Positions 14,200 to 33,651 of a stretch of 63,073 nucleotides of DNA are shown here, piece by piece; the first letter of the stretch is position 1; the number at the start of each line of letters is the position of its first letter. The stretch spans positions 1 through 63,073 of the forward strand of contig JAXGBA010000075.1 in NCBI GenBank assembly GCA_034186235.1. Reading direction: 5' to 3'. Made by a program: the position numbers and the translations under genes. The DNA is from Clostridia bacterium. GTDB taxonomy: Bacteria; Bacillota; Clostridia; HGM11514. Under the pieces are notes generated by a model, which saw only the letters and a program-made list of their open reading frames with translations, was not told the DNA's origin and did not search any database.

Positions 14200-14230
14200 G
14201 ACTCGCCGCCCCTCATCGGGGCGGCGAGTC
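14200..14230. terminator. Bidirectional intrinsic terminator shared by the LRR gene and sigK
   Basis: GC-rich 13-bp stem gactcgccgcccc / ggggcggcgagtc with a 5-nt loop. Overlaps the sigK stop codon. Confidence 0.8.
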
Positions 14231-14918
14231 AGGCTTCATCAAATGCTTCGCGCAGTTTTTCGACTGCGCGTTTTTCTATTCTTGAAACATAGGAACGGGA
14301 AATATCAAGAACCTCCGCAACCTCACGCTGCGGCCATTCTCTGCCGTCGGTGAGCCCGTAGCGAAGCTCAATAATCGTTTTTTCCCTGCCGCTGAGCACT
14401 TTATTGATAAGCGAGCGCAGCTTTTTTGTGTCAAACCTCAGCTCAACATCGCCGTAGACCTCCTCGCTGTCGGTTTCGAGGATTTCCATATAGGTCATCT
14501 CGCCGCCGCCCCTGCCGCTCTTTATAGGTTCATAAAGCGACACCTCGCTTTGCAGCTTCTTCTCCGCTCTCAGCACCATAAGCACCTCGTTTTCAATGCA
14601 CCTTGCAGCATATGTCGCAAGGCGCGTGCCCTTGCTGTTTTTGTACGATTCAACCGCTTTTATAAGCCCGATTGTGCCGATGGAAATCAAATCGTCCATA
14701 TCCTTGCCGCTCGTTATGTATTTTTTTACAACATGAACCACAAGCCTTAAATTGTGCTCTATAAGCAAATCGCGCTTTGAACGGTCGCCGGCTAAATATT
14801 CATCTATGTATTTCCGCTCGGTTTCCTCGTCAAGCGCCTTCGGAAACGAATTCGGATTAACTATATATCCCGCTAAGAAAAAGAGGTTGCCGAGAACCGT
14901 AAGAATAAATGTAATCAT
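14229..14918 (-). CDS. sigK: RNA polymerase sporulation sigma factor K (pro-sigma-K), uninterrupted
   Basis: The N-terminal pro-sequence plus FLAGYIVNPNSFPKAL...LIEHNLRLVVHVVKKY...DLISIGTIGLIKAVESY...LATYAARCIENEVLM matches the B. subtilis SigK pattern (YVKNNAFPQPL...MLIEHNLRLVAHIVKKF) rather than SigE or SigG. Full regions 2-4 are in one ORF. Confidence 0.9.
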   Translation of the reverse strand: MITFILTVLGNLFFLAGYIVNPNSFPKALDEETERKYIDEYLAGDRSKRDLLIEHNLRLVVHVVKKYITSGKDMDDLISIGTIGLIKAVESYKNSKGTRLATYAARCIENEVLMVLRAEKKLQSEVSLYEPIKSGRGGGEMTYMEILETDSEEVYGDVELRFDTKKLRSLINKVLSGREKTIIELRYGLTDGREWPQREVAEVLDISRSYVSRIEKRAVEKLREAFDEA

Positions 14919-17093: not shown

Positions 17094-17717
17094 ATGGCAG
17101 ATTCCGAACACGGCGAATTCGTCTCTATGACCGATGACGAGATTGTCAAGCTTGCAAAAGCCGATAATCTTCACGCATTGGAATATATTCTTGAAAAATA
17201 TAAAAACTTTGTTAAATCCCGTTCCCGTCCATATTTTCTTATCGGCGCCGACCGTGAGGACATTATTCAGGAAGGCATGATTGGGCTTTACAAGGCGATA
17301 AGAGACTACGACACCGAAAAATACACCAATTTCAGGGCGTTTGCGGAAATGTGCATTACACGGCAGATTATAACGGCGATAAAAACCGCTACAAGGCGCA
17401 AGCATATGCCGCTTAATTCCTATTTGTCGCTGAGCCACCCGGTATTTGATGAGGAGTCGGACAAGACGCTCCTCGATACTATAACCGAGCACAGCTGCCT
17501 TGACCCGGAGGAAATTATTATAAATAAGGAAGATTATACCTCCATAGGCAAAAAAATTAACGAACTTTTAAGCCCGAAGGAAATGGAAATTCTGTCGATT
17601 TATCTTCAGGGTAAATCATATCAGGAAATTTCAGACGAACTCGGCATTTCGCATAAATCGATTGACAATGCGCTTCAGAGGGTTAAGCGCAAGCTTGACA
17701 AAAACATTCGTAATTAA
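17094..17717 (+). CDS. sigH: RNA polymerase sporulation sigma factor H
   Basis: YFLIGADREDIIQEGMIGLYKAIRDYD...FRAFAEMCITRQIITAIKTATRRKHMPLNSY is near-identical in pattern to B. subtilis SigH (YFLIGADREDIVQEGMIGLYKSIRDF...FKAFAELCITRQIITAIKTATRQKHIPLNSY). Confidence 0.9.
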   Translation: MADSEHGEFVSMTDDEIVKLAKADNLHALEYILEKYKNFVKSRSRPYFLIGADREDIIQEGMIGLYKAIRDYDTEKYTNFRAFAEMCITRQIITAIKTATRRKHMPLNSYLSLSHPVFDEESDKTLLDTITEHSCLDPEEIIINKEDYTSIGKKINELLSPKEMEILSIYLQGKSYQEISDELGISHKSIDNALQRVKRKLDKNIRN

Positions 17718-21879: not shown

Positions 21880-22152
21880 TTACTTCACTATATCTTCTGC
21901 TGTATCTTTGACACCCCTGCCGGCGTCCTCTATGGTGTCCTTGACATCTTTGCCGGCGTCTTCTACTGTATTCTTTACATCTTCGCCGGCATCCTTCATT
22001 CCCTGCTTCGTATCATCTTTGATGTCGTTTGCTTTGTCGCTGACGCTGTTATTTGTGCTGCTGTTGGTATTTTTGTCAGCGTCATTGCTGCCGCAGGCTG
22101 TAATACTGAAAAGCATTACGGTTATAATAAATGCAGATAAAAGTTTTTTCAT
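21880..22152 (-). CDS. Small lipoprotein built from acidic 11-residue repeats
   Basis: GGAGG lies 8 nt before the ATG at 22152 (the track start at 22167 is upstream of the RBS). MKKLLSAFIITVMLFSITAC lipobox. Then DAGEDVKNTVE / DAGKDVKDTIE / DAGRGVKDTAE repeats. Confidence 0.7.
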   Translation of the reverse strand: MKKLLSAFIITVMLFSITACGSNDADKNTNSSTNNSVSDKANDIKDDTKQGMKDAGEDVKNTVEDAGKDVKDTIEDAGRGVKDTAEDIVK

Positions 22153-22203
22153 TGAAATAACCTCCAATTTTGATATGTCTATTATAACCGCAATGCGAGG
22201 GAT

Positions 22204-22986
22204 TTATGCATTTTTGATTTTAAGCCTGATTCTGTCCGAAATCATCGCTATAAATTCGCTGTTTGTGGGTTTCCCTTTTTCGCTGTGAATTGTATATCCG
22301 AAATACGATGAAAGCACTTCCGGATCGCCTCGGTCGAATGCAACTTCGATTCCGTGGCGGATTGCTCTTTCAACTCTGGAATTTGTTGTGTGGTATTTTT
22401 TCGCAACAGCCGGGTAAAGCTGTTTTGTGACAGCATTTATAAGTTCTGCGTTTTCAATTACCATCATAATGGCGCACCGAACATAAGTGTATCCCTTAAT
22501 GTGCGCAGGAACACCGATTTCATGCATAACATTTGTTACTTCGGTTTCCATATCCGGTTTTGAACCGGCAATCTGCGCCACCGTTTGAGATACCATGGCA
22601 GATTCGTTCAATTTCCCGCTGAACTGCACAATCCTTTCGGTAAGCGCCGTGAGTTCCACAGGCTTTAACATGCAATATGAAGCGCCGTAGTGAATGGCGG
22701 TCTGTGTAAGCTTGCTTTGCCCGATTGCGGTGGTAACAATAACTGCAGGCTGCTTTTTCGGGCTCATCTGACGAAGCCTTTTTAAAACCTCAAGTCCGTC
22801 AAGATACGGCATACAAATATCAAGTATAAGTATGTCCGGTTCGAGTTCGCGCAGCTTGGAGCATGCTTCGTCGCCGTCCTCGGCAGTGCCGATAACTTCA
22901 AAATTGTGCTTGCTTTCAAGATAATCGCATAGCTTTTCTCTCCAATCGGCGTCATCATCCGCAATAAAAATTCGTATTTTTGCCAT
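22204..22986 (-). CDS. spo0A: Stage 0 sporulation master regulator Spo0A (canonical receiver)
   Basis: Receiver with [21 protein letters not shown] and MLKP. Effector domain with [30 protein letters not shown] and [13 protein letters not shown], matching B. subtilis Spo0A signatures. GGAGG RBS. Confidence 0.92.
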
Positions 22987-23004
22987 TTTATAAGCCTCCG
23001 TAAA

Positions 23005-23784
23005 TTAATTAATATTTTTCATTTTAAGCCTGAGTTTATCGGAAATCATTGCTATAAATTCACTGTTTGTCGGTTTTCTTTTTCCGAAGCGGCAGATGTT
23101 GCCGAAATATCCCGTTAAAACATCGGGATCTCCTCGTTCAAACGCAACTTCTATACCGTGCCTTATCGCCCTTTCAACACGGGAATTTGTGGTTGAGTAT
23201 CTTTTTGCAATTTTCGGGTAAAGCTCTTTTGTAACTGCTCCGAGCAGACCCGAATCGTCAAGTACCATCATAATTGCCGATCTTACATAGCTGTAGCCTT
23301 TGATATGTGCAGGAATCCCTATTTCATGCATTATATCCGTTATTTCATTTTCCGCATTGCTGCTTGTTCCCCCGACAGGCGGCGCTGCGGCTTCTGTGTA
23401 CTGCGGCTCGGACGATACAAACTGTATTATCCGCTCGGTCAGCACGGAAAAGTCAATAGGCTTAGCCATGCAATATGTAGCCCCAAGCTTTACGGCGGCT
23501 CTTGTCAATACGCATTGCCCTTTTTCGCAAGTGACAATAATTGACGGCTGCTTTTTGAATTTGACTTTACTCAGTGATTTTAAAACCTCTGTCCCCTCAG
23601 GTTCATTAATGCCAATGTTCAGTATCAAAAGGTCCGGTTCCAGTATCGGCACCATTGTGCATACGTCCCTTCCCTTCTGAGCGGTACCTGTAATTTCAAA
23701 GTTTGGCTTGTCTTTAAGATGGTCGCAAAGCCGTCTGAGCCATTCCCCGTTGGCATCAGCGGCAAATACACGGATCTTATTCAT
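23005..23784 (-). CDS. Spo0A paralogue with a degenerate (phospho-acceptor-less) receiver domain
   Basis: Track ORF is 23005..23802 (TTG start). The ATG at 23784 follows GGGGGG by 9 nt. Effector domain is intact ([43 protein letters not shown]). The receiver reads [20 protein letters not shown] and MAKP. Confidence 0.85.
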
Positions 23785-23827
23785 TAAAATGTTACCCCCC
23801 AATATGTAAAGTTCTTTGTTCTATTAC

Positions 23828-23856
23828 ATAATACCATAATTTGGCACAAAATGCAA
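23828..23856 (-). promoter_or_regulatory. Sigma-A-type promoter for the spo0A pair
   Basis: On the minus strand: TTGCAT, 17 nt, TATTAT, with TGg extended -10. About 40 nt upstream of the ATG at 23784. Confidence 0.5.
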
Positions 23857-23925
23857 CTAAAACCGTTCGCCTCTTTTCTACAACGACACCTATTTTATTA
23901 CAAAAAATCCAACAAGTAAATACCG

Positions 23926-23932
23926 TTCGACA
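23926..23932 (-). promoter_or_regulatory. Consensus 0A box (TGTCGAA)
   Basis: Plus-strand ttcgaca equals minus-strand TGTCGAA. A related aGGCGAA sits 60 nt closer to the promoter. Both are embedded in a repeated CGAACGGT. Confidence 0.35.
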
Positions 23933-24000
23933 TGTTGCGATATTATATTCTCGTAACATTATGGTAACGATATAAATATTGTTAGGAGTGATATATTTAA

Positions 24001-25254
24001 ATGTCAAAATTTATAGTTAAAAACAGCGGAAAATTAAGCGGTTCAATCAGGATTGATGGTGCAAAAAACGCGGCGCTTCCTATAATTTCAGCGTCATTGC
24101 TTTCGGGTGGCGAATGTGGGCTTACAAATGTGCCGAGCGTAAGTGACATCGCCCTAATTAGAGAAATATTGTGCAAATTAGGTTGTAAATTGTCAAATTT
24201 AAGTGATTCTGAGCTGAAAATTGACACATCCAAGCTTAAATCCGTTAAGCCTCCGTACGATTTGGTGAGCGGATTGAGGGCTTCGTTTCTGGTTATGGGG
24301 CCGCTTCTTGCGAGAGAGGGAAAGGCTGTAGTTTCACTTCCCGGAGGATGCAGGATAGGCACAAGACCGGTTGACCTTCATTTAAAAGGTTTTCGAGAAA
24401 TGGGAGCGGAAATATCGCAGAGCCACGGCGTGATAACGGCGAAGGCAAGAAGACTATACGGTGCGGAAATATATCTTGATTACCCGAGCGTGGGCGCAAC
24501 AGAAAACATAATGATGGCTGCGACCCTTGCGGAGGGTACAACCGTGATAAACAATGCCGCAACCGAACCCGAAATTGTGGATTTGGCGTCATTTCTCAGA
24601 AAGATGGGCGCAAAAATCAAGGGCGACGGTACGGAAAAAATAACCGTTATCGGCGTAAACTCAATGCACGGTGCGGATTATTCGGTCATGCCGGACAGAA
24701 TAGAAGCCGGAACTTATCTCGTTGCGGCGGCTGCCCGCGGCGGAGATGTGACGGTTAAGGACTGCAAGCCTGCGCACCTTAAACCCATTACGGCAAAGCT
24801 TACCGAGATGGGGGCGGAAATTACGGAAGGCAGCGGCTCCGTAAAAATTAAAACTGACGGAAGGCTGAAAGCGGCTGACATAAGCACGCTGCCATATCCA
24901 GGATTTCCGACGGATATGCAGGCGCAGTTTTCGGCGCTTTTAAGCACTTCAGATGGCACAAGCATAGTAAAGGAAACCGTTTTTGAAAACCGATTTCTTT
25001 ATGCCGGCGGACTTAAAAGAATGGGCGCAAATATAAAAACGGAAGGACGGAGTGCGATAATCGAGGGGGAAAAGCAGCTTACCGGTGCGCCCGTTGAGGC
25101 AACCGACCTCCGCGCGGGAGCAGCGCTGGTAATCGCAGCGCTTTCGGCGAAGGGAAGCAGCGAAATTTCAGAAATCGAACATATCGACAGGGGATATTTC
25201 CATATGGATGAAAAACTAAATTCTCTTGGGGCGAATATCATAAGAGAGCCATAA
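24001..25254 (+). CDS. murA: UDP-N-acetylglucosamine 1-carboxyvinyltransferase (MurA paralogue 1)
   Basis: 417 aa. GAKNAALPIISASLL, active-site loop LPGGCRIGTRPVDLHL (Cys), FPTDMQAQF, HIDRGY. Confidence 0.9.
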   Translation: MSKFIVKNSGKLSGSIRIDGAKNAALPIISASLLSGGECGLTNVPSVSDIALIREILCKLGCKLSNLSDSELKIDTSKLKSVKPPYDLVSGLRASFLVMGPLLAREGKAVVSLPGGCRIGTRPVDLHLKGFREMGAEISQSHGVITAKARRLYGAEIYLDYPSVGATENIMMAATLAEGTTVINNAATEPEIVDLASFLRKMGAKIKGDGTEKITVIGVNSMHGADYSVMPDRIEAGTYLVAAAARGGDVTVKDCKPAHLKPITAKLTEMGAEITEGSGSVKIKTDGRLKAADISTLPYPGFPTDMQAQFSALLSTSDGTSIVKETVFENRFLYAGGLKRMGANIKTEGRSAIIEGEKQLTGAPVEATDLRAGAALVIAALSAKGSSEISEIEHIDRGYFHMDEKLNSLGANIIREP

Positions 25255-25313: not shown

Positions 25314-26321
25314 GTGAAAAGAAAGGTAATTGCGGCGTTTGCGGCGATGCTTGCGGCAGCGGCGATGATGATGTGGACTTACTCGGGAGAGCCTTCCGTA
25401 ACTGCCGATGCGGACAGGCAAACCCTGAGTCTGGTTCCGTGCGGTAACACAATAGGTATAAAAATAGAATCGGACGGCGTATGCGTTGTCGGCACATCAG
25501 AGCTTTCAGGTCCGGGTGATGATTCTTCCAAGCTTATTAAGGGAGATATTATTACCAAAGTCGGGGAGTGTGAAGTCAAATCGACCGAGGAACTTAAATC
25601 GGCGCTTGAAAGCGAATGCGGAGAAAAGGTGATATTTGAGGTCATACGGGACGGAAAATGCGTTTCGGTTGAGGTCACACCTACCGTTAATCCGATTGAT
25701 GGTTCCCGTCTTATCGGGGCATGGGTCCGCGACAGTGCCGCAGGTATCGGCACAATGACATGGTATAATCCGGAAACCGGGCGTTACGGCGCCCTCGGGC
25801 ACGGCATAACCGACATTGACACCGGCAGCCGCTACGGAATCGGACAGGGTGAGATTGTTCAGGTTTCGGTAACGGGTGCTTCGAAAGGTGAGGTCGGTAC
25901 ACCGGGGCTTATAACGGGCGACTTTCTCGATTACGAAGGGACGATTGACAAGAATACCGAGGTGGGCATAGGAGGCTATGTAGAAAATTCTTGGATGCTC
26001 CCGGGGTTTGAACCGATTGAGACCGCCGCACCCGATGAGGTCAGGGAGGGCAATGCCGAAATCCTTTGCTGTATCGACGGAACGGGCGTGGAAAGATTTT
26101 CCGCTGAAATCGAAAAAACTATGAGCGGCCGCATAAGCGGTACAAAAAATCTTGTTCTGCACATAACCGATGACAGGATTATCGAAAAAACTGGAGGAAT
26201 TGTGCAAGGCATGAGTGGCAGCCCTATTATTCAAAACGGCAGGCTTGTCGGCGCAGTTACACATGTTTTCATCAACGACCCCACAAGAGGTTACGGAACT
26301 TTTATCAAAAACATGCTTTGA
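25314..26321 (+). CDS. spoIVB: SpoIVB signalling serine peptidase (S55)
   Basis: GTG start after GAGGGGAG. TM anchor. PDZ segment (GDIITKVGECEVKSTEEL). GTMTWYNPETGRYGALGHGITD. Catalytic GMSGSPIIQNGRLVGAVTHVFINDPTRGYG. Confidence 0.9.
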   Translation: MKRKVIAAFAAMLAAAAMMMWTYSGEPSVTADADRQTLSLVPCGNTIGIKIESDGVCVVGTSELSGPGDDSSKLIKGDIITKVGECEVKSTEELKSALESECGEKVIFEVIRDGKCVSVEVTPTVNPIDGSRLIGAWVRDSAAGIGTMTWYNPETGRYGALGHGITDIDTGSRYGIGQGEIVQVSVTGASKGEVGTPGLITGDFLDYEGTIDKNTEVGIGGYVENSWMLPGFEPIETAAPDEVREGNAEILCCIDGTGVERFSAEIEKTMSGRISGTKNLVLHITDDRIIEKTGGIVQGMSGSPIIQNGRLVGAVTHVFINDPTRGYGTFIKNML

Positions 26322-30326: not shown

Positions 30327-30812
30327 TCAAGTGCTTTTTCTGATTTTTTTAATAAGCAGCGCATTTTTTCTCAACTTGCGGTGGTAAAACATGACTATAA
30401 GACCGAATTTTCCGCATCTCTTTTCGGTTTGGAGGACAAGTTTTCTGATTAATTTCAGCAAAAACAAAATCGGTGCGGCGATAATTTTTAAAATCATAAA
30501 CAGTAGCTTTGCCGCAGCAAGAAACAGTTTTTCGAACAGTCTTGAAAGCACTGCGAAATAAATGGCAGCGCCGAGAAACATTCCGATAAGCTGAAATCCG
30601 CGGATTTCACCGTCTGCAAATCTGAGCATTGTTCCAAAACCTATGCATGCGGACAAAAGCCAGAACAGTATATCCGTGAAAACCACTGCCGCTCCGCCTA
30701 GGTGCAGATATTTTCTCAAAAGCTTAAGAAGGTCATATATTGTTCCGCAGGCGAATCCGGAGAGAACCGCCGCCAGAAAAATCAGTCCCTGACGGCTTAC
30801 ATAAACCGCCAT
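30327..30812 (-). CDS. yabQ: Spore cortex biosynthesis protein YabQ
   Basis: 161-aa membrane protein (GTIYDLLKLLRK, FTDILFWLL). Its start overlaps the yabP stop. Canonical yabP-yabQ-divIC order. Confidence 0.75.
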   Translation of the reverse strand: MAVYVSRQGLIFLAAVLSGFACGTIYDLLKLLRKYLHLGGAAVVFTDILFWLLSACIGFGTMLRFADGEIRGFQLIGMFLGAAIYFAVLSRLFEKLFLAAAKLLFMILKIIAAPILFLLKLIRKLVLQTEKRCGKFGLIVMFYHRKLRKNALLIKKIRKST

Positions 30813-31601: not shown

Positions 31602-32377
31602 ACATGAATCTCCCCCGGAAACTCCCTTGACGCAACCGAAAGGCGGCAGTCCGAAACCTTTATTCCGCCCTCTTCAAGCACGGATTTTACCGTAACATAT
31701 GCAAGGTCGGGGTGGTTATTATGCATACTTAAATGACCGAGAATTATATCTTTTGAGCCGTGTTTGATAAGTTCTCTGCATAAAACGCCGGCTTTTTCGT
31801 TTGAAAGATGCCCTTTATCCGACAGTATTCTTTTTTTCAGAGGGTACGGATAAGGCCCTGATTTAAGCATCTCAACATCATGGTTCGCTTCAAGCAAAAT
31901 CACATCGCTGCCCATAACATTTTTTGAAAGCTCATCCGTTACATACCCGATATCCGTGCAGACCGAAAGCTTTTTGATACCGTCCGAAAATGTATAGCCT
32001 ACGGGATCTGCTGCGTCATGAGGAATGGAAAACGGGGTTATTTCAATGTCGCCTATATTGAATTTTCCGTCAAAAATCTTGACTGAAGCTTCGTTGTAAC
32101 GCCCGATTGAGCTTTCAAATGCGCGAAATGTGCCTTCGTTTGCATAAATATCCGCTCCGCTTTTTCTGTGAATAATTCCGACCGACTGAACATGATCGGA
32201 ATGTTCATGCGTTACCAGAACTGCATTTATGGATTTAAGGTCTATACCGTGCGAAGACAGCGCCTGTTCAATTTTTTTGCCGCTTACGCCGCAGTCAACC
32301 AACAGTCTTGTCTGTCCGTTTTCAACAAATATACAATTACCGCTGCTGCCGCTGTACAGCGAGCAAAGCCTCAGCAA
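31595..32377 (-). CDS. MBL-fold metallo-hydrolase (YycJ/WalJ-like)
   Basis: 260 aa. SGSSGNCIFVE, HEHSDHV motif. Sits directly upstream of rlmH, a placement I recall for Bacillus. Confidence 0.85.
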   Translation of the reverse strand: MLRLCSLYSGSSGNCIFVENGQTRLLVDCGVSGKKIEQALSSHGIDLKSINAVLVTHEHSDHVQSVGIIHRKSGADIYANEGTFRAFESSIGRYNEASVKIFDGKFNIGDIEITPFSIPHDAADPVGYTFSDGIKKLSVCTDIGYVTDELSKNVMGSDVILLEANHDVEMLKSGPYPYPLKKRILSDKGHLSNEKAGVLCRELIKHGSKDIILGHLSMHNNHPDLAYVTVKSVLEEGGIKVSDCRLSVASREFPGEIHVC

Positions 32378-33651
32378 AGCAAGTCCTCCACATCGTTAAC
32401 TCTTGTTATATCTGCTCCGAGTACCCGGAGCTTGCTTTCAAAGTTTTCATATCCGCGGTCGATATGAGTAAGATTATAAAGCTCGGTTGTGCCCTTTGCT
32501 ATAAGGCCTGCAATAAGCATCGCAGCACCTGCTCTCAGGTCGGTTGAGCGGACAGGGCATCCCGAAAGCTGCTTTACGCCCTCTATTACGGCGGTTTTGC
32601 CGTTGACCTTTATATTTGCGCCCATATGCTGTAGCTGGTCAACATACTGAAAACGGCTTTCCCATACATCTTCGCGCACAATGCTTGTGCCCTCCGCAAT
32701 TGTCAGCAGCATAACCGCAAGCGGCTGCATATCCGTCGGAAACCCCGGATATGGCAATGTTTTGATATTTACCTTATGTATTGGGGTGCCATCTCTGTAA
32801 ACACGGACGGAATCGTCATATTCCCGTATGCCGACCTTCATTTCTACAAGCTTTGCGGTGATAGCGTCAAGGTGTTTCGGAATAACATTTTTTACAAGCA
32901 CATTTCCGCCGCAGGCTGCTGCCGCAACCATGAATGTGCCGGCCTCAATCTGGTCAGGAATAATCGAGTATGTGCAGCCGTGAAGCGATTTCACGCCCGT
33001 AACCCTTATCGTATCCGTTCCGGCGCCTTTGATTTTTGCGCCCATGGAATTAAGAAAGTTGGCAAGGTCGACAACATGCGGTTCTTTTGCGGCGTTATCT
33101 ATGACCGTCATACCTTCCGCCATAACCGCGCAAAGCATTATGTTTATGGTTGCCCCGACGGACACCACATCAAGATATACCGAATCCCCCCAAAGCCCGT
33201 CTTCGGCACGGCTTGAAACTATGCCGTGTTCAACCGTCGTCTTTGCTCCGAGAATTTCAAAGCCTTTTATGTGCTGGTCGATAGGTCTGCCGCCGAAGTC
33301 GCAGCCCCCCGGGAGCGCAACATCTGCCGAATGAAAACGCGCCAGCAGAACGCCCAAAAGGTAATAGGACGCCCTCATTTTTCTTACGATAGGTTCAACT
33401 GCGCAGCTTTTATCGAGCCTTGAGCAGTCAATATCAATCACGCCGCCTCGGTTATATTTCACATTTGCACCTAAAAGCCGCAGTATTTCAAGCAGAACAT
33501 CAACATCCTTGATATTAGGGACATTTTCTATAACGCATCTGCCCTCAACCAAGGCGGTGGCGGCGATTATCGGCAATGCGGCGTTTTTTGCGCCGCTTAT
33601 ATTTACTTCGCCGAAAAGCTTATTTCCGCCGTTGATAACTAATTTATCCAC
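32371..33651 (-). CDS. murA: UDP-N-acetylglucosamine 1-carboxyvinyltransferase (MurA paralogue 2)
   Basis: 426 aa. GAKNAALPIIAATAL, LPGGCDFGGRPIDQHIKGF (active-site Cys), FPTDMQPL, HIDRGY. Confidence 0.9.
   Translation of the reverse strand: MDKLVINGGNKLFGEVNISGAKNAALPIIAATALVEGRCVIENVPNIKDVDVLLEILRLLGANVKYNRGGVIDIDCSRLDKSCAVEPIVRKMRASYYLLGVLLARFHSADVALPGGCDFGGRPIDQHIKGFEILGAKTTVEHGIVSSRAEDGLWGDSVYLDVVSVGATINIMLCAVMAEGMTVIDNAAKEPHVVDLANFLNSMGAKIKGAGTDTIRVTGVKSLHGCTYSIIPDQIEAGTFMVAAAACGGNVLVKNVIPKHLDAITAKLVEMKVGIREYDDSVRVYRDGTPIHKVNIKTLPYPGFPTDMQPLAVMLLTIAEGTSIVREDVWESRFQYVDQLQHMGANIKVNGKTAVIEGVKQLSGCPVRSTDLRAGAAMLIAGLIAKGTTELYNLTHIDRGYENFESKLRVLGADITRVNDVEDLLC

Follow-up and report, generated by a model that had tools for sequence, protein, structure and literature searches.

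A spo0A tandem in a Clostridia bacterium, with a putative pseudo-receiver paralogue upstream of the canonical gene

Among developmental switches that are gated by phosphorylation, Spo0A is the textbook case. In a 63,073-nucleotide stretch of DNA from a Clostridia bacterium (contig JAXGBA010000075.1 of assembly GCA_034186235.1; hereafter the window), two spo0A genes lie in tandem on the minus strand, and in the protein encoded by the upstream gene the phospho-acceptor aspartate of the receiver domain is replaced by asparagine. More than one spo0A gene in a genome has been reported before: two or three paralogues were found in 11 of the 118 Spo0A-positive genomes of one survey (bioRxiv 10.1101/2022.02.25.481979), and in Clostridium thermocellum two Spo0A homologues share 56% identity (PMC4890492), so the view of spo0A as a single-copy gene, taken in an initial annotation of this DNA, does not stand. 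The C. thermocellum pair (Clo1313_0637/Cthe_3087 and Clo1313_1409) resembles the one described here in its divergence (56%, compared with 55% here) and in the presence of a second copy in addition to a canonical one. However, its locus-tag numbering suggests that the two genes lie far apart, unlike the tandem in the window, and the reports on known paralogues mention neither a tandem co-transcribed layout nor the loss of the acceptor; it is by these descriptions that the present locus is set apart. In comparison with canonical Spo0A (Bacillus subtilis and Clostridioides difficile; PDB 1qmp, 1fc3 and 1lq1), the upstream copy has the same architecture of a receiver (REC) and a Spo0A_C domain, but it carries N56, A11, C86 and a rewritten loop, and it is a second copy rather than an orthologue.

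The second group of related systems comprises the aspartate-less or pseudo-receivers (ALR/PsR) such as RitR, ChxR and HP1043, in which the REC fold is kept while the acceptor and its catalytic neighbours are replaced, as in the upstream copy; RitR likewise has Asn at the acceptor position (PMC4395418). The activity of pseudo-receivers is presumed to be independent of phosphorylation, and they commonly work by forming dimers or by teaming up with a cognate regulator (PMC12632262). The upstream copy differs from the known members in its Spo0A_C output domain and in being paired, in what is probably one operon, with its phosphorylatable parent. The name Spo0A is absent from the 2025 perspective on pseudo-receivers (PMC12632262), and in the ALR paper it figures solely as a mutagenesis example (PMC4395418). 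Two further systems bear on the pairing itself, namely the co-operonic typical regulator and pseudo-receiver regulator CmrR/CmrT of C. difficile (PMC12548384), and BldM and WhiI, whose heterodimers control development in Streptomyces (PMC4125116). As is proposed for the tandem described here, both consist of co-regulated paralogous response regulators, one of them atypical, that act on a developmental or lifestyle switch. Their output domains belong to other families (OmpR and NarL), unlike Spo0A_C, and a heterodimer has been shown for BldM-WhiI and suggested for CmrR-CmrT; in the present tandem it would be one possible mode of action. Moreover, because both proteins of the tandem share an identical recognition helix, competition is here as likely as joint binding. 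In the literature that could be searched, we met with neither an Asp-less Spo0A paralogue nor a tandem of spo0A genes; the matches were notes on copy number only, and those for D56N were papers on DegU only.

Family membership and receiver active site of the two proteins

The tandem consists of the following elements, in the direction of transcription:
23784..23005, minus strand: Spo0A paralogue with a predicted pseudo-receiver, 259 aa, ATG start, beginning MNKIRV
22987..23004, minus strand: intergenic spacer of 18 nt, with an invariant GGAGG at 22999-22995, 8 nt before the ATG of spo0A
22986..22204, minus strand: canonical spo0A, 260 aa, with D10, D11, D56, T86 and K108 all present

The two co-directional open reading frames (ORFs), the 18-nt gap and the separate GGAGG of the second gene were thus reproduced as first annotated. 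The longest ORF of the upstream gene opens at a TTG at 23802; the ATG at 23784 was preferred because the homologues all begin M-[NDE]-K-I-R. A GGGGGG run (23800-23795) lies between these two candidate starts. At one related locus (L001) the paralogue ORF runs through the spacer and stops 1 nt short of the spo0A start. A third spo0A-like gene was not detected in the window by tblastn. An assembly artefact was considered and excluded, given the 55% identity between the genes and the recurrence of the tandem in independent assemblies.

Both proteins were compared with TIGR02875 (spore_0_A), an NCBIfam equivalog model with a curated cut-off of 200 bits. The upstream copy scores 256.6 bits over model positions 1-260 of 262, and the downstream copy 332.6 bits; each lies above the cut-off, in agreement with the original assignment of both to the Spo0A family. 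Pfam recognizes Response_reg and Spo0A_C in both proteins, with 45.4 bits (upstream) and 88 bits (downstream) for Response_reg (PF00072, cut-off 30.2), and 136.8 and 149 bits, respectively, for Spo0A_C (PF08769). The proteins are 55% identical overall, and 77 of the 113 aligned positions of the effector domain are identical, which agrees with an earlier count by hand of about 77 in the last 110 residues. The effector domain of the upstream copy is 60% identical to those of 1fc3/1lq1, on which it superposes at 1.1-1.8 Å, and its recognition helix equals that of the canonical copy residue for residue. The PF08769 match and the unchanged helix support the intact 0A-box-reading domain that the initial annotation had ascribed to this protein. 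Additionally, both folds are kept in the AlphaFold2 model of the upstream protein, whose mean predicted local distance difference test (pLDDT) score is 85, and the (βα)5 receiver is modelled with pLDDT above 90 across most of residues 1-85. A Foldseek comparison gave template-modelling (TM) scores of 0.90-0.94 to the Spo0A effector domain (1fc3, 1lq1) and to receivers (5wq0, 1qmp), with values of 0.91-0.94 for the receivers 5wq0 and 1qmp.

The acceptor column was set by profile alignments, by alignments to Spo0A receivers of known structure (9phz, 1qmp/1dz3 and 5wq0) and by family alignments. The upstream copy has Asn (codon AAC) in the Asp56 column, which is also the result of the profile alignment earlier proposed as a check on this assignment. 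The remaining positions read D10, A11, C86, E87 and K108, and C86 occupies the place of the conserved switch Thr (T86 in B. subtilis). The β3-α3 loop reads NIGINEPEG in the upstream copy and DICMPYLDG in the canonical copy, and the family-invariant M59, P60 and D63 are all replaced. The changes first noted by eye (the second acidic Asp to Ala, Thr to Cys, and a rewritten loop after the acceptor) are therefore all seen in the alignments, as is the full phosphorylation set of the downstream copy (D10, D11, D56, T86 and K108); the statement that Lys is the only surviving active-site residue of the upstream copy has to be corrected, since the first acidic Asp (D10) is retained too.

The upstream protein and its orthologues were then scanned for departures at positions that are at least 90% invariant among 70 other Spo0A sequences. 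The departures are confined to two clusters, one in the active site of the receiver (positions 11, 56, 59, 60, 62, 63 and 87) and one in a C-terminal loop (229, 230 and 236), and the recognition helix is untouched. The altered loop lies at the equivalents of B. subtilis Y238/T239, which we take to belong to the σA-activating region (residues 227-240); two near-invariant residues are replaced in the loop equivalent to this presumed region.

Because the residue set of a phosphorylatable receiver is not present, the upstream copy, as judged from its sequence, belongs to the Spo0A sequence family without being functionally equivalent to Spo0A. As the defining feature of the phosphorylation site fails, the gene is best filed as encoding a Spo0A-derived pseudo-receiver (aspartate-less) response regulator. 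The downstream copy is, by its profile score, both domains and complete phosphorylation site, predicted to be canonical Spo0A.

The acceptor position was also surveyed in the wider family, using 123 full-length sequences from the best 150 cluster representatives at 50% identity. About 16-18 of these 123 divergent representatives (~14%) are without the acceptor Asp, which is replaced by Asn (P0129, P0192, P0247), Ser (P0138), Gly (P0167, P0196), Tyr (P0175) or Glu (P0134, P0145, P0198, P0230, P0231, P0236, P0245, P0254, P0267), and many more are without D11. Asp-less Spo0A-like proteins therefore look like a broad class, for which we found no description in the searchable literature. The label "sporulation transcription factor Spo0A" is carried at NCBI by two proteins of Asp-less clusters from metagenome-assembled genomes (MAGs), MBR7142361.1 and HIV20721.1 (Candidatus Scatomorpha stercorigallinarum). 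Two Asn-acceptor genes of this kind do not adjoin a canonical spo0A and stand directly downstream of agr-type quorum-sensing genes, which encode AgrB, a kinase of the HATPase_c_5 type and a LytTR regulator in one case (L015:2043-5810) and a LytTR regulator in the other (L016:4148-5795). Moreover, four proteins, P0121 (454 aa), P0122 (439 aa), and P0123 and P0026 (428 aa), contain three or four stretches that match the Spo0A_C region of the query and look like receiver-less tandem repeats of Spo0A_C; the record of P0026 lists PF08769 only.

Distribution, descent and selective constraint of the paralogue

A protein database search with the upstream copy returned orthologues at 99, 89, 83, 67 and 67% identity, and the next matches, at 53-57%, were orthologues of the downstream copy. 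As the initial annotation had suggested, the tandem was looked for in related genomes, where it recurs, wherever the DNA extends far enough, in the same murA-spoIVB setting: spoIVB and murA lie on one strand, and the paralogue, followed by canonical spo0A, is divergent from them. It was found in about six related gut lineages, represented by the Logan assemblies L001/L002 and L003/L004, a Hadza-gut Clostridia MAG (L005), the human-gut MAG MGYG-HGUT-04133 together with an independent ENA contig (L006/L017), and two short contigs, L012 and L013, whose sequence ends shortly after the second gene has begun. In L014 (GCA_054296185.1), which is more distantly related, a single canonical spo0A occupies this position. 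Scans of GTDB and of JGI metagenomes with a receiver-only profile contributed two GTDB lineages and one duplicate of L006. The paralogue clade is rare.

Neighbour-joining trees with bootstrap were built from the receiver and the C-terminal domain separately. The paralogues are monophyletic in both (bootstrap 100% for the receiver and 99% for the C-terminal domain), their clade is sister to the canonical clade of their own lineage, and the order of branching within it parallels the canonical tree. This monophyly and mirrored branching point to a single duplication followed by vertical descent. In view of the single gene of L014, either the duplication is older than the L014 lineage, with later loss there, or the fast-evolving copy has been drawn to the base of the tree. 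Two other histories were rejected. Gene conversion is at odds with the clade-specific C-terminal residues common to paralogues of different species and with the C-terminal tree, which splits the copies at 99%. A horizontal origin is at odds with the lineage-specific residues (TTN-S, H-G-I and A-F) that the paralogues have in common with the local canonical copies, to which they are sister, and with the matching GC content overall (GC) and at third codon positions (GC3). One sequence of the trees, P0017 (an ENA contig of 1298 bp), looks chimeric: it has an Oscillospiraceae-type receiver with a Glu acceptor, while its C-terminal part, as far as visible in the alignment, is identical to that of the L006-type paralogue, with which it groups at 100% in the C-terminal tree. 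It is either a chimera of metagenome assembly or a real recombinant.

The loss of the acceptor is not a trait of the whole clade, as the deeper members keep Asp. The deeper paralogues (L001, L003 and L006) read D10-E11-D56-S86-K108, and the Asp-less acceptor is found in the window, P0001, L005, L012 and L013. On the branch that leads to the window, L005, L012 and L013, D56N (GAC to AAC) and S86C were gained, and the youngest members later changed E11 to Ala or Ser. The rewritten β3-α3 loop (GI..P.G, compared with MPxLDG) is common to all paralogues, the deeper ones included. Since the deeper members still carry Asp, the active site was eroded stepwise. Asn56 (AAC) and Cys86 are found in all four DNA sequences of the Asn clade (window, L005, L012 and L013), at dS (synonymous divergence) up to ~1.4. 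For the subclade of the window, the description of the protein as phosphorylation-blind can be regarded as secure on the basis of these residues.

Selection was estimated as ω (dN/dS, the ratio of nonsynonymous to synonymous divergence) by the Nei-Gojobori method at unsaturated dS (0.46-0.58), and about six lineages underlie the selection and conservation statistics. Between the window and L005, ω of the paralogue is 0.059 for the whole gene, 0.056 for the receiver and 0.024 for the effector domain, compared with 0.017 for the whole canonical gene. For the whole paralogue, ω is 0.10-0.12 against L012 and 0.11 between L003 and L006; for the effector domain, values within the Asn clade range from 0.02 to 0.05. 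The receiver dN between the window and L005 is 0.034 for the paralogue and 0.003 for the canonical copy, and the paralogue receiver evolves 3- to 10-fold faster than the canonical one. These estimates indicate that the paralogue, its degenerate receiver included, is clearly under purifying selection, although it changes several-fold faster than the canonical copy. The neutral evolution of the N-containing copy in relatives, which the initial annotation had asked about, was not borne out (dN/dS 0.06-0.12).

That the upstream gene is a duplicate without function or in decay, on its way to becoming a pseudogene, or else a product of misassembly, might have been suspected from the low receiver score (45 bits vs 88), the 3- to 10-fold faster evolution and the stepwise erosion of the active site. 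This explanation can be considered effectively refuted: the reading frame is intact in seven of the seven sequenced orthologues, ω is 0.06-0.12, the gene has persisted beyond synonymous saturation, the fold is confidently predicted, and the tandem comes from independent assemblies of different studies.

Constraint is distributed unevenly over the paralogue receiver. In the region α4-β5-α5, 21 of 29 positions are invariant, compared with 10 of 33 from α1 to α3 (Fisher p = 0.002), and the canonical copy of the same five genomes lacks this contrast. In helix α1, invariant positions number 4 of 12 in the paralogue and 9 of 12 in the canonical copy, and the variable positions differ among the paralogues. 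In response regulators, α1 is the main docking helix for kinases and phosphotransferases, and α4-β5-α5 is a common dimerisation face. Given this general knowledge, the pattern fits a relaxed recognition of partner kinases together with a retained protein-protein surface.

The same data bear on the possibility that the paralogue is a decoy or phosphate sink, which would damp the activation of Spo0A with no need to bind DNA. Its receiver would dock sporulation kinases or Spo0E-like phosphatases, with the Asp-bearing relatives draining phosphate and the Asn clade titrating these partners. The receiver is indeed under purifying selection, the deeper paralogues keep the chemically competent set D10/E11/D56/S86/K108, and binding competitors of such a type have been discussed for pseudo-receivers (PMC12632262). 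However, α1, on which kinases usually dock, is under less constraint than any other part of the paralogue receiver (4/12 vs 9/12 invariant positions, the variable ones differing among paralogues), and the DNA-binding domain, which a pure decoy would not need, is conserved still more strongly (ω 0.02-0.05 in the Asn clade). We therefore consider a decoy or sink quite unlikely.

Upstream region and transcription of the tandem

The following elements were identified around the paralogue gene:
23785..24000, minus strand: upstream control region between murA and the paralogue, 216 nt, 85% conserved across five tandem loci
23926..23932, minus strand: perfect 0A box TGTCGAA, with TGTCGAAC invariant in the five tandem loci
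23828..23856, minus strand: promoter-like element, TTGCAT, 17-nt spacer, extended -10 TGG-TATTAT, recognized from the sequence and the alignments
23005..23106, minus strand: synonymous sites more conserved than elsewhere over the final ~34 codons of the paralogue (p = 0.002 to 0.003, Fisher test)

The upstream control region is 85% conserved although the paralogue proteins of the same loci are only 67% identical, and it can be aligned in part with the region upstream of spo0A in the single-copy outgroup. At the position of the 0A box the outgroup carries TGTCAAT, and weaker 0A-like repeats (TGTAGAA and GGCGAAC) follow downstream of the perfect box. In the window as a whole, 0A-box heptamers are not found above chance (8 found vs 9.6 expected), and the evidence for the box is for this reason its conservation and not its occurrence. 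In the promoter-like element, TTGCAT matches the -35 consensus at three of six positions, and owing to this weak -35 the element was not listed by the consensus scan. All tandem loci carry the identical -10 block, TGGTATTATGTAA, to which TGTTAAAAT of the outgroup is homologous. Because the outgroup spo0A upstream region aligns over the same block, the paralogue appears to lie directly behind the ancestral, autoregulated spo0A promoter.

The conserved 0A box and the extended -10 are present upstream of the paralogue only. Between the two genes, the context of the ribosome-binding site alone is conserved. In the consensus scan, neither the spacer nor the DNA that follows spo0A yielded a terminator, and no consensus promoter was detected on the coding strand inside the paralogue gene or in the spacer. 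By eye, no convincing match was found to a σH-type promoter upstream or, within the final 100 nt of the paralogue, to an internal one, and an Rfam scan of the whole window gave no RNA element. On account of the tight spacing and since neither a terminator nor a second promoter was found, the paralogue and spo0A are most likely co-transcribed, each with its own ribosome-binding site. The sole conserved promoter region precedes the paralogue, which is thus promoter-proximal to canonical spo0A, as first proposed.

No promoter, terminator or Rfam element that would explain the raised synonymous-site conservation at 23005..23106 was found. This segment may be an element that acts at the nucleotide level on the expression of the downstream spo0A, such as a translation-initiation context or an internal promoter.

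Beyond spo0A, a small lipoprotein with acidic repeats is encoded at 21880-22167 (minus strand), with a signal peptide ending ITACG and KDAGEDVKDT repeats. The gene begins 36 nt past spo0A, has its own GGAGG and occupies the same position in L001, L003 and the outgroup L014; it may belong to the spo0A transcription unit.

Possible role in the control of sporulation

We propose, and give about an even chance of being correct, that the paralogue is a phosphorylation-independent modulator of the Spo0A regulon, acting through 0A boxes, through pairing with phosphorylated Spo0A (Spo0A~P), or both. According to this model, the paralogue would have arisen when spo0A was duplicated in tandem within a small, uncultured clade of gut Clostridia, and its receiver would no longer be phosphorylatable at the usual site, owing to the change of Asp56 to Asn together with those at D11, M59, P60, D63, T86 and A87. 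The protein would be made whenever the spo0A operon is on, and would act without phosphorylation. Since the Spo0A fold is kept and the recognition helix is identical, its DNA-binding domain is expected to read the same 0A boxes as Spo0A. It could do so as a homodimer that competes with Spo0A for these boxes, or it could pair with Spo0A~P through the conserved α4-β5-α5 face; the selective conservation of this face in the paralogue is an indirect hint of a heterodimer. The altered loop in the presumed σA-activating region might make it a poorer or a different activator. The net outcome would be the setting of the threshold or the timing of entry into sporulation. The roles suggested in the initial annotation, namely competition at 0A boxes, heterodimer formation and basal regulation, are all plausible.

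Several points weigh against this proposal. The receiver of B. subtilis Spo0A inhibits the effector domain as long as it is unphosphorylated, and variants that cannot be phosphorylated are inactive. The Asn56 protein could likewise be locked off for DNA binding, unless other substitutions relieve the inhibition. The deeper paralogues may still be phosphorylated, in which case "phosphorylation-blind" would perhaps apply to the younger subclade only, and the ancestral role of the paralogue may have been another one, for example that of a phosphate sink. Furthermore, the selection and conservation statistics are drawn from only about six lineages, the argument from the σA region depends on mutant positions in B. 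subtilis, and behind the synonymous conservation near the 3' end of the paralogue there could be an internal promoter, contrary to co-transcription.

A different explanation would give the paralogue a separate regulon, for example in stress response or metabolism, and have it respond not to phosphorylation but, for example, to a ligand, to a partner protein or to redox chemistry of the cysteines C86/C105; its adjacency to spo0A would then be purely historical. The second Spo0A of C. thermocellum is not the controller of sporulation and has been mutated repeatedly in stress-adapted strains (PMC4890492; PMC3804516), and RitR is an Asn-acceptor receiver that has turned into a redox sensor (PMC4395418; PMC5965902). 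In the present family, Cys86 arose on the same branch as D56N, and two other Asn-acceptor Spo0A-like genes adjoin agr quorum-sensing operons and not spo0A. However, the identical recognition helix makes a distinct DNA specificity unlikely, and the tandem, with its invariant spacer and ribosome-binding site, is kept in every lineage in which it was found, which argues for a functional linkage to spo0A. On balance, we regard a separate regulon as unlikely.

A further idea concerns the Asn clade alone, in which another input might have taken the place of phosphorylation: oxidation of C86/C105, a metal or a ligand would toggle the receiver, leading to homodimers or to pairing with Spo0A at 0A boxes. 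C86 stands at the switch position equivalent to CheY T87, next to C105 (equivalent to Y106), and S86C lies on the same branch as D56N. Of the cysteines, C86 occurs in the Asn clade only, C91 in every paralogue, and C105 in the canonical copy as well; none of the three is at the position of the RitR cysteine. We consider such a toggle very improbable; if true, it would be an oxygen- or redox-gated, kinase-independent route by which an obligate gut anaerobe enters or leaves sporulation, inside the spo0A operon.

Four further sporulation genes were recognized in the window:
14229-14918, minus strand: sigK
17094-17717, plus strand: sigH
25314-26321, plus strand: spoIVB
30327-30812, minus strand: yabQ

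All four are found no more than about 10 kb from the spo0A tandem and form with it a dense cluster of sporulation regulators. Because SigH, SigK, SpoIVB and YabQ are encoded in the window, the organism retains sporulation machinery. The arrangement differs from that of B. subtilis and C. difficile in that spoIVB and spo0A are divergently oriented, with murA between them. The window contains two full-length murA paralogues 7 kb apart, at 24001-25254 (plus strand) and 32371-33651 (minus strand), of which one scores above and the other below the cut-off of PRK12830.

Spo0A paralogues and pseudo-receivers are individually known; what is new here is a putative pseudo-receiver at the master sporulation switch, probably in its own operon, with the intermediates preserved. 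The Asp-bearing intermediates would provide a natural series for the conversion of a receiver into a pseudo-receiver. The finding also means that plain "Spo0A" labels can mislead the inference of sporulation from spo0A, as well as the counting of its copies, in metagenomes. The sporulation threshold in gut Clostridia governs transmission from host to host and is poorly understood. If the proposed role is true, the paralogue would be a built-in, dose-dependent modulator in the autoregulatory spo0A loop, which could act through competition, heterodimer formation or coincidence detection.

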